Below, in pieces: positions 18,601 to 21,584 of a stretch of DNA of 64,000 nucleotides. This DNA comes from Psammoneis japonica (taxonomy: Eukaryota): positions 493,330 to 557,329 of the forward strand of contig QPGO01000032.1 in assembly GCA_008632985.1 (NCBI GenBank). The letters run 5' to 3'. Position 1 is the first letter of the stretch, and each line of letters opens with the position of its first letter. Below the pieces are notes generated by a model that was not told the origin of the DNA, did no database searches, and saw only the letters and a list, made by a program, of their open reading frames with translations. Made by a program: the position numbers and the translations under genes.

Positions 18601-21308
18601 TTGGTTCGCCCGCCCACACATGGCTGCTGGCGCTCATGCATGTGTGCTTCATGCTCAACCATGCAGCATCCCCACGTCTCCACTGGCGCACGCCCCTCGA
18701 GACTCTCACTGGCTCCACCCCGGACATCAGCCCATTGCTTTGCTTTCACTGGTGGGAACCCGTGTGCTTCCACCTCGATGACTCCGATTGGCCGTCCAAA
18801 TCCCGTGAGTTGCGTGGACGCTTTGTTGGCATTGCTGAGCACGTCGGCCACCAGATGACCTTCAAGATTCTCTCTGACGAGACTCAGAAGATCCTCTGCC
18901 GGTCCAACGTACGCTCCGCTGCCACCGATCCTGCCGTTCGAAACCTGCATCTTGATCCTCCTGATGGGGAGCCACCTGAACCCATCATCAAATCTCGCCA
19001 TGACGACAACCCCGTCGATTCTCCTGATGGGGAGATCAGGACACCCAAGATGCCAGTTTTCGATCCGCAAGACATCATCGGACGCACCTTCCTCATGCAG
19101 CCACAAGAGGACGGACAACGCCACAGAGCTCGCATCGTCAAGGCCGTCGAAGACCACAAATGGAAAGTGAACGGCAATCCCGAGCTCACTAAGTTCGTCT
19201 GCTCTGTCAACAACGATGAATGCGAGGAAGTCCTTGCCTGCAACGACATCATGAATCACATTGAGCAAGAAGACGAAGACACCACTGTTTGGAAATTTCG
19301 ACGCATCGTGTCACACGAAGGACCTCTGAAGCCTCATGACCCAACCTGGAAAGGCTCAAGCTACAACATCATGCTTGAATGGGAAAGTGGGGAGATCACG
19401 TCCGAGCCTCTTGCCATCATCGCCAAGGATGACCCCGTCACCTGCGCCATCTATGCACGAGAGAACGGACTTCTCGACACTGATGGCTGGAAGCAGTTCC
19501 GCACCATTGCGAGGCACCAAAAGAAGCCATTTCGCATGGCCAACCAAGCCAAGCTTCGCTCCTTCCGCACTGCACCTCGCTGCAAGTGCGGATGCGAAGT
19601 TCCCGGAACTGCAAACACACCATGTCACTGGACGAACGCAATGGCAACCGCAAATGGGGAGACGCAACTAACCTCGAGATGGACCAACTCGAGGAGTGCG
19701 AAGTCTTCCATGACTGCGGGCCCTTCAAGTCTTCCACTCCTCCTGCGGGACACAAGAAGATCCGAGTGCACCCAGTGCACGACGTGAAACACGACGGTCG
19801 CCACAAGGCACGACTCGCAGCCGATGGGCACCTCACGGACGCACCCATTGACAGTGTCCACTCCGGAGCAGTCTCCCTCCGTGGCCTTCGGCTGATGATT
19901 TTCCTGGCCGAACTCAACGAGTTGGAGACATGGGCCACCGACATTGGCAATGCCTGCCTTGAAGCCACCACCAAGGAGAAGCTCTACATTGCAGCCGGAC
20001 CCGAATTTGGCAAACTCGAAGGACACATCCTTGTCATCCACAAGGCCCTGCATGGACTGCGCAGCTCTGGTCTCCGCTGGCACGAGCACTTTGCCGACTG
20101 CCTGCGAGCTGAAGGATTCTTCCCCTGCCGCGCCGAACCCGACATTTGGGTGCGCAGGAATGGCGACCACTGTGAACACATTGCCGTTTGTGTGGATGAC
20201 CTCGCCATTGCTGTGAAGGACCCTCAATCTTTCGTCGATGCTCTCACGGAAAAGCACAAGTTCAAGCTCAAGGGTGCGGGACCCATTGAGTTCCATCTGG
20301 GTTGCGACTTTTCCCGGGATCCCGACGGAACCTTGTGCCTGTCTCCGCGCAAGTGCATTGAGCGCATGGTTGACAGCTGCGCCCGACTGTTTGGGGAGAA
20401 ACCTGCCACCAATGCCCTGTCACCTCTGGAGAAGGGTGACCACCCCGAACTGGACACTTCCGAACTGCTGGGGCCCGATGGCATTCACAAGTTCCAGTCT
20501 CTTGTTGGTTCACTCCAGTGGGCAGTGTCCCTTGGTCGAATTGACATCACCACGGCCATCATGTCACTCTCTAGCTTCCGAGCTGCGCCCCGTCAAGGCC
20601 ACTTGGATTGTGCCAAACGCGTCTGTGGGTGCCTCTCCAAGATGCGACATGGCGCTCTCCGCGTTCGCACGGAAGAGCCCGACTGTTCGGATCTCCCTGC
20701 TCCGGCCTGTGAATGGATGCATTCCGTGTGCGGTGAAGCAGAAGAGATGATCCCGAAGGATGCTCCACCGCCCCTTGGCAAGTTTGTCACTGCCACCCAC
20801 TGCGTCGGTGCAAACTTGCACCATTGCATGCTCACCGGACGCTCTGTCATGGGAATGCTCCACTTCCTCAACAAATTCCCGGCTGATTGGTTCTCTGAGA
20901 AGCAAGCCACCATGGAGACTGTGACCTGCGGGTCTGAATTTGTTGCCGCAAGGACTTGTGTTGAGCAGATCATCGACCTGCGCATCACCCTGCGCTGCCT
21001 TGGCATCCCGATCTGCAATGTCAGTTGCATGTTCGGTGACAACAAGTCGGTTGCAGACAGTGCCACCATCCCGCACTCCAAGTTACACAAGCGACACACC
21101 GCACTGTCATTCCACCGTGTGCGTGAGGCAATTGCCTCTGGTTGCCTTGAGTTCCACTTCATCGAAGGCTCCCGCAACCCTGCTGACATTCTCAGCAAGC
21201 ATTGGGGTTGCTCCCAAATCTGGGACCTTCTCCGCCCCCTCATGTTCTGGAACTTCATTCCATCTGAAGTCGAATCTGTTTCTGTGACTCCTCAAGCAAA
21301 CTGGGGAG
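15663..21308 (+). pseudogene. copia gag-pol polyprotein pseudogene
   Basis: Protease LVDRGANG, integrase IATDT..LISDRAQVE..QHQNFAER, RT DIGNACL/KALHGL/CVDD, RNase H FGDNKSV..NPADILSKHW. TGA stops at 16764 and 18555, frameshift near 19600. Confidence 0.95.
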
Positions 21309-21584
21309 TGACAGGATTTGATCAGGATTTGGGTGCGCGCGAAATGTTGCGCGCTGTTTAGTTTGCCGCGCACAATTTTGTGTGCTTTGGTTCCGTGCGT
21401 TCGCGCGCGATGCAGTTTGCTTTCGAGCCACAAGGCTCACAAGAATGACAACAGCAGCCCGACTGTGCCGACTCACACGTCTTTTGGCTCCTGCAACGGT
21501 CTCTGAGCGGAGACTCATCTGCTGTTTAGACAGCAGTGAGGAGTTGTTGTTTGAATTCTTGCCATTTGCCTTCAATTTCTGTCA
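21309..21584 (+). repeat. 3' LTR
   Basis: Direct repeat of 14485-14760 followed by TSD CTTGC. Confidence 0.95.

Follow-up and report, generated by a model that had tools for sequence, protein, structure and literature searches.

The window examined here, 64,000 bp of Psammoneis japonica, is diatom nuclear DNA in which three blocks have lost most of their TpA dinucleotides. This pattern is probably the product of a region-limited mutational process that converts TpA to TpG or CpA on chromosomal DNA following the integration of mobile elements. A:T pairs of TpA steps would be changed to G:C, giving TG or CA according to the strand struck, and the conversion would proceed until TA is nearly exhausted. 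Judged from comparisons of copies and relatives, the direction of change, the specificity for TpA and the action on both strands after integration are established. The same comparisons show the process to be restricted to three blocks, whose edges span a few hundred bp, and to have struck a copia retrotransposon and, unrelated to it, a transposase-like gene, as well as the non-coding DNA in between.

The effect on coding sequence follows from the genetic code. With the loss of TA, Tyr codons (TAY) become Cys, or His if a purine precedes the codon. The codons ATA, GTA, CTA and TTA are altered, and TAA and TAG vanish. As no new in-frame stops arise, proteins are killed by missense (YVDD to CVDD), all six frames are long and open, and the G+C content goes up.

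The copia element

A complete copia insertion occupies 14485-21584; the LTRs are 276 bp long, and 5 bp of target sequence are duplicated on either side. The LTRs, the target-site duplication (TSD) and the RVT_2-type reverse transcriptase (RT) identify it as a Ty1/copia LTR retrotransposon. Among named relatives the best match is from the diatom Cylindrotheca, and the element may belong to one of the ‘CoDi’ lineages. Its parts, all on the forward strand, are as follows.

14480..14484 (+): target-site duplication CTTGC, left copy; the identical pentamer stands right after the 3′ LTR
14485..14760 (+): 5′ LTR, 276 bp, TGACAG...CTGTCA; 92% identity with 21309-21584
14761..21308 (+): internal region between the LTRs, gag-pol relic; tblastn with intact metagenome polyproteins spans 16809-21247
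16764..16766 (+): in-frame TGA from CGA; C at 16764 in most other copies (59,660 of 61,881 depth)
16809..19604 (+): N-terminal two thirds of pol, upstream of RT, frame 3, Tyr nearly absent; 41% identity to relatives L021, L027 and L006
18555..18557 (+): second in-frame TGA, from frame reading
19586..21361 (+): copia RT/RNase H frame with CVDD for YVDD; terminates at a TAG within the 3′ LTR
19601..19604 (+): 1-bp deletion shifting pol from frame 3 to frame 2, located by the tblastn frame switch
21309..21584 (+): 3′ LTR, from comparison of the LTR pair
21585..21589 (+): target-site duplication CTTGC, right copy; adjoins the 3′ LTR

The copy is dead, given CVDD, the two in-frame TGA codons and the frameshift near 19601. 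The TGA at 16764 derives from CGA, which makes CpG decay the source of at least one stop. An extra C after 19601 is present in other copies of the element (12,376 of 21,671 depth), as read from k-mer contigs of a public run whose library type is unrecorded. Approximately 930 aa upstream of the RT are homologous to the matching part of the polyproteins of intact relatives. Within 16809-19604, the aligned Tyr of L021, L027 and L006 are kept at only 2 of 27, 2 of 22 and 2 of 30 positions respectively, most being now Cys or His. A Pfam search for rve, the integrase family expected upstream of RT in the copia gene order, gave no match in this copy, nor in two intact relatives.

The frame at 19586-21361 matches RVT_2 in Pfam (PF07727, E=1.7e-22), scoring 80.7 bits over a cut-off of 31.6, against 102 and 95.4 bits in two intact relatives, a shortfall that agrees with the alignment counts below. 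The initial annotation described this frame as holding one Tyr, with conserved Tyr residues turned into Cys or His, and the description has stood up well. The 591-residue translation has a single Tyr, in KLYIAAG, a content of 0.17% compared with a median of 4.49% in the 120 relatives listed. When set against the consensus of 33 relatives, CVDD replaces YVDD, KALHGL replaces KALYGL, GNACL replaces GNAYL, TCGSEF replaces TYGSEF, LRCLG replaces LRYLG and HWGC replaces HWGY, all as proposed. The derivation of VHPVHDVK from VHLVYDVK stands in part: the L to P change reads CCA, but the relatives have VHLVFDVK, with F in the majority and Y occurring too.

All 17 columns in which Tyr is conserved in at least 80% of relatives are changed in this copy, to 13 Cys, 3 His and 1 Phe. 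Of the 319 other columns conserved to this degree (336 in all), 285 are kept (Fisher p=9e-16 vs Tyr). The same 17 columns are also at least 80% Tyr among the 120 relatives listed. Since the relatives retain Tyr there, Cys and His are not the ancestral residues.

TA as the ancestral state

The evidence supports TA as the ancestral state, with TG and CA derived from it. A codon alignment of the RT with 31 open-frame metagenome relatives contains 23 sites with TA in the consensus, of which 15 are now TG, 5 CA and 2 TT, and 1 is kept. With 20 of 23 sites now TG or CA, substitutions are concentrated at TA, in line with the initial annotation. The remaining 15 dinucleotides retain 458 of 566 sites (p=1.6e-14 vs TA), and AA among them a similar proportion of its conserved sites (33 of 40). 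The RT stretch has 5 TA in 1,776 bp, compared with 30-80 per kb (median 48) in the 31 relatives. The TA observed/expected ratio (o/e) of the region is 0.02-0.11 here and 0.31-1.13 across 80 related loci.

Further observations point the same way. The relatives hold both Tyr and TA at sites altered here, V to A changes read GCA in 3 of 3 cases, and other genomic copies of the copia family retain TA at several of the TG/CA sites. Within the window, 27 sites read TA in the repeat copy L″, described below, and TG or CA in its sister copy L; the reverse is found at 0 sites. By this count a RIP-type C:G to T:A process making TpA was rejected, its direction being opposite.

It had also been claimed that inactivation proceeds by missense and not by stops. 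The part concerning TA is correct, in that its conversion to TG or CA deletes TAA and TAG, which number 5-13 per frame in the copia element vs 32-47 in an equal-length stretch outside. As an account of this copy the claim needs qualifying, as the two in-frame TGA and the 1-bp frameshift are also present.

Timing, strands and rate

The two LTRs differ at 22 positions, made up of 13 TA/TG/CA interchanges, 6 differences of CpG type and 3 others. The 13 interchanges comprise 5 TG-versus-CA doublets and 3 cases of TA versus TG or CA. As the LTRs were identical at insertion and now differ by TG/CA doublets, the change took place on DNA, post-integration and on both strands. The doublets also speak against the spread of a master copy already devoid of TA. 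A 4.4-kb repeat pair holds 18 further TG/CA doublets; its adjacent mismatch pairs number 20 against 2.24 expected, with a maximum of 9 in 2,000 permutations. The order of TG and CA along the repeats forms no clear runs (12 vs about 14 expected, counted by hand), and processive editing was set aside.

Editing during replication, of the ADAR or APOBEC type, was rejected because the two LTRs have grown apart since insertion and each of them carries TG as well as CA products. A specific version would have an ADAR-like enzyme act on UA in the retrotransposon RNA before integration, with A>G fixed by reverse transcription. The element is indeed a retrotransposon, and the Discussion of a preprint on the alga Bigelowiella natans describes a 5′ U preference as typical of RNA adenosine deaminases (bioRxiv 10.64898/2026.01.13.699255). 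Pre-integration editing is nevertheless extremely improbable: the doublets lie between LTRs of a single TSD-flanked insertion, both strands are altered, non-retroelement sequence and inter-element DNA are altered too, and the TA-poor state ends at positions within repeats.

At least 13 of 18 LTR copies of TA have been lost, alongside 6 of 40 copies of CpG and 3 other differences in 276 bp. Arithmetic on the LTR pair would place the per-site loss of TA at about 8 times CpG decay. Relative to the rest it would be of the order of 100-1000 times faster, an order-of-magnitude figure with only 3 background differences as its base. The slower decay of CpG to TpG or CpA in the same blocks would presumably proceed via cytosine methylation.

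A>G errors at WA, and at TA especially, are a feature of Pol eta. Error-prone repair synthesis by a polymerase of this kind, recurring in silent chromatin, would need no dedicated base-modifying enzyme, and linkage of repair to chromatin would give the regional restriction. This explanation is very unlikely, given that AA is spared in the RT alignment and that a near-total loss of TA beside 3 other differences per 276-bp LTR pair is over-specific for polymerase errors.

Regional blocks

The density of TA is 4.9 per kb in the three blocks (164 in 33,551 bp; 0.5% of positions) and 40.7 per kb outside them (1,227 in 30,150 bp). The blocks and the features that bear on them are listed below.

7330..25370 (no strand): TpA-depleted block 1, the copia element nested in older TA-poor, partly CpG-poor DNA; TA o/e 0.0-0.26 per kb
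28640..37370 (no strand): TpA-depleted block 2, two tandem units of a transposase-bearing repeat (28484-33255 and 33256-37628), from the TA map and repeat comparison
33453..36716 (+): 1087-aa relic of a widespread protein of ~1000 aa, with 1 Tyr; 821 homologues
37627..38991 (+): outer repeat copy L″, just beyond block 2, TA retained (48 TA); internal reference for direction
41380..48460 (no strand): TpA- and CpG-depleted block 3, two tandem units of ~3.2 kb, from the TA map and repeat comparison

The left edge of block 1 is sharp on the TA map, at 7324/7787, and block 3 contains an assembly gap at 47804-48102. CpG is also scarce in places, with an o/e of 0.07-0.26 at 10-14 kb and 0.15-0.22 at 42-47 kb. 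In the transposase-like gene at 33453-36716, none of the 13 conserved Tyr columns still reads Tyr: 7 are now Cys, 3 His, 1 Gln, 1 Phe and 1 Ser. Pfam assigns no family to this protein, even in 6 relatives; it may be DUF6729/Mutator-like, the lead being a feature-search match alone. Most of the block frames are likewise without a Pfam family among the 45 long frames of the window that were searched.

Another explanation is that no mutation has occurred, and that the low TA reflects native composition, selection against UpA or a base-calling artefact at modified bases. TA is in fact mildly under-represented throughout the window, with an o/e of 0.4-0.8 outside the blocks, and modified bases may mislead some sequencing chemistries. 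It is hardly credible, however, that this accounts for the destruction of catalytic and conserved residues, for the higher TA o/e of the 80 relatives or for paralogues in different states within one window. Furthermore, the independent k-mer contigs of the public run agree on the TA-poor single-copy parts of block 1, which are matched in 8 pieces with 0-7 differences each. Where the run and the window disagree in the single-copy part of block 1, at 7000-14336, 12 differences are listed (40 of 439 window-wide); only 2 of these are TA/TG or TA/CA, which gives little sign of present-day activity.

A repeat trigger as in fungal RIP, with homology recognition of multicopy DNA and mutation at TpA in place of CpA, has also been considered. 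Blocks 2 and 3 are tandem duplications, and the copia family has a summed depth (not a copy number) of 61,000-139,000 vs 48-84 in the flanks, a roughly thousand-fold excess. Such a trigger is still rather improbable. L″ adjoins its sister copy L (31903-33262) and is 96% identical to it over 1.36 kb, yet holds 48 TA compared with 16 in L. In the first repeat unit the ~100-150 bp at the outer end still hold TA, which is gone from the inner copies, and TA is retained in the first ~140 bp of repeat units. The parts of block 1 outside copia are now at single-copy depth (48-84) yet TA-poor, and many other copies of the copia family have TA intact at sites mutated here. In addition, the hypermutated giant-virus insert of B. 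natans is single-copy, according to the main text of the preprint (bioRxiv 10.64898/2026.01.13.699255).

The preferred reading, an enzyme-driven defence against mobile DNA that is directed by position or chromatin state and not by sequence copy number alone, appears likely. The chromatin targeting is drawn from one window, and the block edges could also mark differing ages of insertion.

Sequence context and chemistry

The survival of TA in the blocks relative to outside depends on its neighbours, being 0.012-0.042 for RTAY and 0.26-0.36 for YTAR. Where the context is asymmetric, 40 changes fall on the TAY strand and 15 on the other (p=0.001); without the RT sites the preference is a moderate 29:14. 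Changes on the strand reading 5′-TAY-3′ are roughly threefold more frequent. At conserved Tyr codons the ratio is 11 TG to 1 CA where the preceding base is Y and 4 to 4 where it is R. Cys outnumbers His because the TAY-reading strand is preferentially changed. A separate effect of the transcribed strand was rejected, as the sense-strand excess in the RT (15 TG vs 5 CA) is accounted for by the TAY context. Intact relatives of the RT likewise hold more TG than CA.

In sequence, A>G on one strand is identical to T>C on the other, which leaves adenine deamination as a choice among chemistries. Tentatively, the deamination of adenine to hypoxanthine in DNA may be proposed as the leading option, with a TadA/ADAT2-like polynucleotide adenosine deaminase as candidate. 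Such an enzyme would fit in that its natural tRNA target, A34, is likewise preceded by U. Position 35 of eukaryotic ADAT substrates is mostly a purine, which is at odds with the TAY preference.

The same regional process could instead act on thymine. A JBP/TET-like dioxygenase or modifier would mark T in 5′-RTA-3′, and mispairing of 5-hydroxymethyl- or 5-formyl-uracil with G would result in T>C. TA to CA and opposite-strand TA to TG would then be one event, the TAY preference would be RTA on the T strand, and all counts fit equally. Hydroxylation of thymine at T-A steps is known from kinetoplastid base J and from dinoflagellate DNA. This chemistry is unlikely, since 5hmU is weakly mutagenic and the sole 2OG-Fe(II) oxygenase frame of the window (49207-49869) is of the prolyl-hydroxylase type (PF13640/PF03171), with no thymine dioxygenase among the frames. 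The one experimental precedent, as described in the main text of the preprint, favours adenine deamination, itself without proof.

Comparison with known systems

The only published example of TpA-specific hypermutation appears to be the 2026 preprint on B. natans, one alga unrelated to diatoms. In mutation-accumulation lines of this alga, two integrated viral regions together acquired 231 mutations, of which 230 are A>G or T>C and lie exclusively at TpA; the rate is about 1000-fold that of the background, with an ADAT2 homologue proposed as the enzyme (bioRxiv 10.64898/2026.01.13.699255). Mettrop et al. also report that TpA-poor coding sequences of B. natans are enriched in reverse transcriptase and DDE domains (bioRxiv 10.64898/2026.01.13.699255).

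Similar to the diatom blocks, the change described in the preprint is solely A>G/T>C at TpA, giving TpG or CpA, and is restricted to regions of foreign DNA. The rate there is orders of magnitude over background, and may be so here too, by an LTR-pair estimate with 3 background differences. The hosts are different, a chlorarachniophyte (Rhizaria) there and a diatom here. In B. natans the process is live in giant-virus and virophage inserts in which TA still makes up 3.3% and 9.2% of dinucleotides, whereas the transposon islands of the diatom are near saturation and are known from sequence comparison alone. The main text of the preprint was found to contain no TAY strand preference, LTR-based timing or co-occurring CpG decay. 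It may be, although this is somewhat doubtful, that diatoms carry a dedicated, chromatin-aimed TpA to TpG/CpA editor that shares a common origin with the chlorarachniophyte process, as an old genome defence of the SAR supergroup.

Repeat-induced point mutation (RIP) of ascomycete fungi is similar in that it, too, changes one kind of dinucleotide to saturation, by transitions on both strands of mobile DNA that has integrated, and does so in blocks, leaving the elements permanently disabled. The diatom process is its mirror image. RIP changes C:G to T:A at CpA, makes TpA, lowers G+C and creates stops, whereas here TpA is destroyed, G+C is raised and stops are removed. RIP is also set off by duplication before meiosis, while here one of two adjoining, near-identical copies has kept far more TA than the other.

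Deaminase-type editing against retroelements is known in animals from APOBEC3, which changes C to U on cDNA, and from ADAR, which changes A to I on dsRNA; ADARs favour a 5′ U. Unlike the diatom process, both work while the element replicates, on RNA or single-stranded cDNA, with a signature confined to one strand already in place at integration. The decay of methylated CpG has the same products, TG and CA, and occurs in the same blocks, contributing the 6 CpG-type differences among the 22 of the LTR pair. It is G:C to A:T in direction, the slower of the two per site by the LTR-pair estimate, and explains neither the loss of TA nor that of Tyr.

The copia element resembles the Ty1/copia elements of diatoms in its RVT_2 reverse transcriptase, short TG..CA LTRs and 5-bp TSD, and differs in being dead. 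A term look-up in Maumus et al. 2009 (PMC2806351), on diatom Ty1/copia, gave no mention of RIP, hypermutation, deamination or dinucleotides, and one in a second diatom transposon paper gave no report of such hypermutation. No diatom report of TpA hypermutation was found in the openly accessible literature searched.

Significance

If true, a second case, in another supergroup, in ordinary transposons and carried to saturation, would make TpA hypermutation a general eukaryotic phenomenon. Diatoms include transformable model species, and the enzyme would be directly testable there if the same blocks are present. A natural adenine editor or thymine modifier that acts on double-stranded chromosomal DNA would be of relevance to research on genome defence and base editing. 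If the editor reading is true, it would leave big stocks of long, G+C-rich ORFs in six phases, from which new genes could arise and by which gene predictors could be misled. On a practical level, TpA-erased blocks give long false ORFs, mask transposon domains from profile searches, lift the local G+C content and skew LTR-based dating.

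Tyrosine Loss in the RT/RNase H Frame

The frame at 19586-21361 (+), which matches RVT_2, translates into 591 residues with a single tyrosine, as the initial annotation had stated. The comparison set comprised 33 of the 120 listed relatives, at 60-66% identity and including one from Cylindrotheca. A column was taken as conserved where at least 80% of the 33 share the same residue, giving 336 columns. None of the 17 conserved tyrosine columns is kept, the replacements being 13 Cys, 3 His and 1 Phe, against 285 of 319 other conserved columns kept (Fisher p=9e-16). These 17 columns are also at least 80% Tyr across all 120 listed relatives. 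The motifs CVDD, KALHGL, GNACL, TCGSEF, LRCLG and HWGC read as first described; the exception is VHLVFDVK, for which a tyrosine had been assumed and the relatives mostly carry Phe. The predicted CTA to CCA and GTA to GCA changes are also seen, the L>P codon being CCA and the V>A codon GCA in 3/3 cases.

TA Sites at the DNA Level

From 80 related metagenome loci retrieved, 46 entered the codon alignment script, and the 31 with an open-frame match were aligned to the window copy, the others being dropped. At 23 sites TA is present in at least 60% of the 31 relatives; the window copy reads TG at 15, CA at 5, TT at 2 and keeps one. The remaining 15 dinucleotides are kept at 458 of 566 sites in the same alignment. 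The frame holds five TA in 1,776 bp, and the 31 relatives have 30-80 per kb. The observed/expected ratio (o/e) of TA in the RT region is 0.31-1.13 in all 80 loci versus 0.02-0.11 in the window, and TA-poverty is therefore no trait of the copia family. The lowest of the 80, L043 (match 305-1975; TA o/e 0.31, CpG o/e 0.82, 55% G+C), may be a partly mutated copy from another sample.

Structure and Decay of the Copia Element

14485-21584, complete copia insertion with 276-bp LTRs, ends TGACAG..CTGTCA and CTTGC flanking both sides (self-comparison and alignment)

Intact polyproteins of three loci match frame 3 at 16809-19604 (41%) and frame 2 at 19514-21247 (62%), which places a frameshift near 19601. 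In contigs of a public run, probably from the source sample, most other copies have an extra C after 19601. Frame 3 contains two TGA codons, the first of which reads CGA in most of those copies. The pol frames have five Tyr in 1,930 residues, and upstream pol keeps 2/27, 2/22 and 2/30 of the tyrosines of three relatives. The RT/RNase H frame terminates at a TAG within the 3′ LTR. TAA and TAG together number 5-13 per frame in the element versus 32-47 in an equal-length stretch outside, in line with the earlier claim of missense change rather than stop creation. Neither the element's longest open frame (778 aa, 16234-18570, +) nor a 580-aa one at 16230-17972 (-) is in a coding phase; both illustrate how TAA/TAG loss creates long false ORFs on either strand.

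The same contigs show 377 transitions among 415 places differing from the window. Among the 40 rows listed, several have TA in other copies against TG or CA in the window (15231, 15832, 16786, 16831, 16875 and 20897), and many others have CG against a window TG or CA, indicating that many copies are less mutated than the window's. Summed depth over the element is 61,000-139,000 versus 48-84 in the flanks, a figure that is not a copy number and that marks the family as very abundant.

Timing and Strands

An LTR pair is identical when its element inserts. This pair now has 22 mismatches over 276 positions: 13 are TA/TG/CA interchanges, 6 are CpG versus TpG/CpA and 3 are other. The 13 are made up of five aligned TG-versus-CA doublets and three TA-versus-TG/CA positions. 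Such a doublet is the expected product of independent opposite-strand hits on one ancestral TA. The 4.4-kb tandem pair 28484-32847/33256-37628 has 18 TG/CA doublets and 24 TA-versus-TG/CA sites, with 20 adjacent mismatch pairs against 2.24 expected (maximum 9 in 2,000 permutations). A further pair, 41801-44295/44846-47397, has 14 doublets.

The outer repeat copy L'' (37627-38991) has 48 TA versus 16 in its sister L (31903-33262). All 16 are held in common and 27 others of L'' appear in L as TG (12) or CA (15), with no site in reverse. This one-way change agrees with the relatives' consensus in making TA ancestral, as had been proposed. LTR doublets and paralogue asymmetry together indicate a unidirectional process acting on integrated DNA and on both strands, so RNA editing of the retrotransposon ahead of integration cannot be the main cause.

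The tandem array at 28484-38991 consists of a unit (28484-33255), a unit without its last ~400 bp (33256-37628) and a full 1.36-kb copy of the terminal segment (37627-38991). Most TG/CA states are common to its two inner copies, which dates the duplication of the unit to after the bulk of the mutation.

Extent of TA Loss

Three TA-poor blocks, listed here with one frame of block 2, were drawn from per-kb dinucleotide ratios and a map of every TA position:

about 7330-25370, TA-poor block 1
about 28640-37370, TA-poor block 2
about 41380-48460, TA-poor block 3
33453-36716, 1087-aa frame in block 2 with 821 homologues

The blocks hold 164 TA in 33,551 bp (4.9 per kb) versus 1,227 in 30,150 bp outside (40.7 per kb), with TG and CA o/e of 1.3-2.2. 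Every long frame within them has at most 0.7% Tyr, and unrelated sequences occur together. Edges are mostly sharp, dense TA ending over a few hundred bases; on its right, block 1 ends more gradually. The edges do not fall at repeat ends: in blocks 2 and 3 the first tandem unit retains, over its first ~100-150 bp, TA lost from the inner unit. Homology-triggered targeting, as in the repeat-induced point mutation (RIP) of fungi, is weakened by these spared repeat edges and by the sparing of the adjacent copy L''. An assembly gap (47804-48102, 299 N) lies within block 3 close to its right edge.

The 1087-aa block 2 protein has lost 13 of 13 conserved tyrosine columns (7 Cys, 3 His, 3 other). A Pfam search with this frame and six intact relatives gave no family; a feature search offers DUF6729/Mutator-like as a lead. 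In public protein data, two of its 150 relatives (P0392, P0336) and two of the 120 RT relatives (P0093, P0047) are likewise Tyr-poor and Cys/His-rich, in patterns unlike the window's.

CpG is also nearly gone at 10-14 kb and 42-47 kb (o/e 0.07-0.26). The copia element keeps a CpG o/e of ~0.85 and is therefore a younger insertion into older decayed sequence, with TA loss outrunning CpG loss. At 10001-14000 and 42001-47000, TA o/e is 0-0.08 and TG/CA o/e reaches 2.15, so that nearly all pyrimidine-purine steps are TG or CA; two decay processes have arrived at the same two dinucleotides. A Tyr-free frame carrying two helicase-associated (HA, PF03457) domains lies at 9977-10594 (-), in the oldest, TA- and CpG-poor part of block 1. 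A 674-aa open frame at 23265-25289 (-), also in block 1, has 0.7% Tyr, a Pro/Thr/Ser-rich linker and a C-terminal Peptidase_M64 match (E=1.6e-7) whose HExxH-like site is damaged. This frame, from the host or captured, may be a gene that fell collateral victim to TA loss.

Public-run contigs recover block 1, where it is TA-poor and single-copy, in eight pieces with 0-7 differences each. For a run of unrecorded library type, this argues against an artefact of assembly or base calling. A contig reads TG for window TA at 10597 and TA for window CA at 12469; these two of the 12 differences listed there are possible allelic or recent changes of the TA/TG/CA kind.

Sequence Context and Rate

TA survival in the blocks relative to outside is 0.012-0.042 for RTAY, 0.07-0.17 for RTAR/YTAY and 0.26-0.36 for YTAR. 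The changed strand was counted in asymmetric contexts only, with ancestral TA given by a paralogue or relatives: TAY was hit 40 times versus 15 for TAR (p=0.001), or 29 versus 14 with RT sites left out; L and its recent duplicate have a common ancestry, so these counts are partly dependent. Both lines agree in pointing to a roughly threefold preference for A with a 3′ pyrimidine, equivalent to T with a 5′ purine. Conserved Tyr codons preceded by a pyrimidine became TG in 11 cases and CA in one, and those preceded by a purine four and four. Tyr codons are TAY, the favoured context, hence the excess of Cys over His. The untouched AA steps make polymerase errors at WA a poor fit.

In the LTRs, at least 13 of 18 TA copies are lost (~1.3 events per site, by our own arithmetic), 6 of 40 CpG copies (~0.16 events per site), and three further mismatches fall in the 276 bp (~0.005 per site and copy). 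TA sites are thus lost about 8-fold faster than CpG sites. The margin over the rest would be a few hundred-fold, with a wide range given a background of three differences.

Comparison with Known Systems

The initial observation is confirmed and its interpretation supported, and the finding widens to a process that spans whole blocks at the DNA level. It has been shown to be post-integration, region-limited and TpA-specific, changing A:T to G:C with a TAY bias. It forms a mirror image to fungal RIP, and its timing and strand pattern set it apart from APOBEC/ADAR editing. It would be the work of an enzyme directed at mobile DNA that is silent, with a TadA/ADAT2-type adenosine deaminase that acts on DNA as the leading candidate. 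The tRNA target of TadA/ADAT2, A34, follows a conserved U33. A thymine-modifying route in place of adenine deamination would have an identical sequence outcome and is considered less likely.

The same signature is described in the text of a 2026 preprint on Bigelowiella natans (bioRxiv 10.64898/2026.01.13.699255). Its mutation-accumulation lines gave 231 mutations in an integrated giant-virus region and a virophage region, of which 230 were A>G or T>C, all of these at TpA, at ~1000 times the background rate. Reverse transcriptase and DDE domains were over-represented in TpA-poor coding sequences there, and an ADAT2 homologue was put forward as a candidate. The preprint's main text makes no mention of diatoms or flanking-base context, and no diatom report of TpA hypermutation was found in the literature searches and diatom transposon papers covered. 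The window adds both a lineage and a class of target that are new to a phenomenon known only from this one very recent preprint.

Host Setting

54900-56069 (-), GAPDH frame, best named relatives Nitzschia, Cylindrotheca and Pseudo-nitzschia at ~70% identity

The window is nuclear DNA of a diatom, and further frames match importin alpha, protein kinase and the HA domain (Pfam). A 2OG-Fe(II) oxygenase frame at 49207-49869 (+) (PF13640, E=1.3e-14) lies ~0.7 kb outside block 3, on its right. Probably a host gene of the prolyl-hydroxylase type, it is mentioned since its superfamily also includes thymine dioxygenases.
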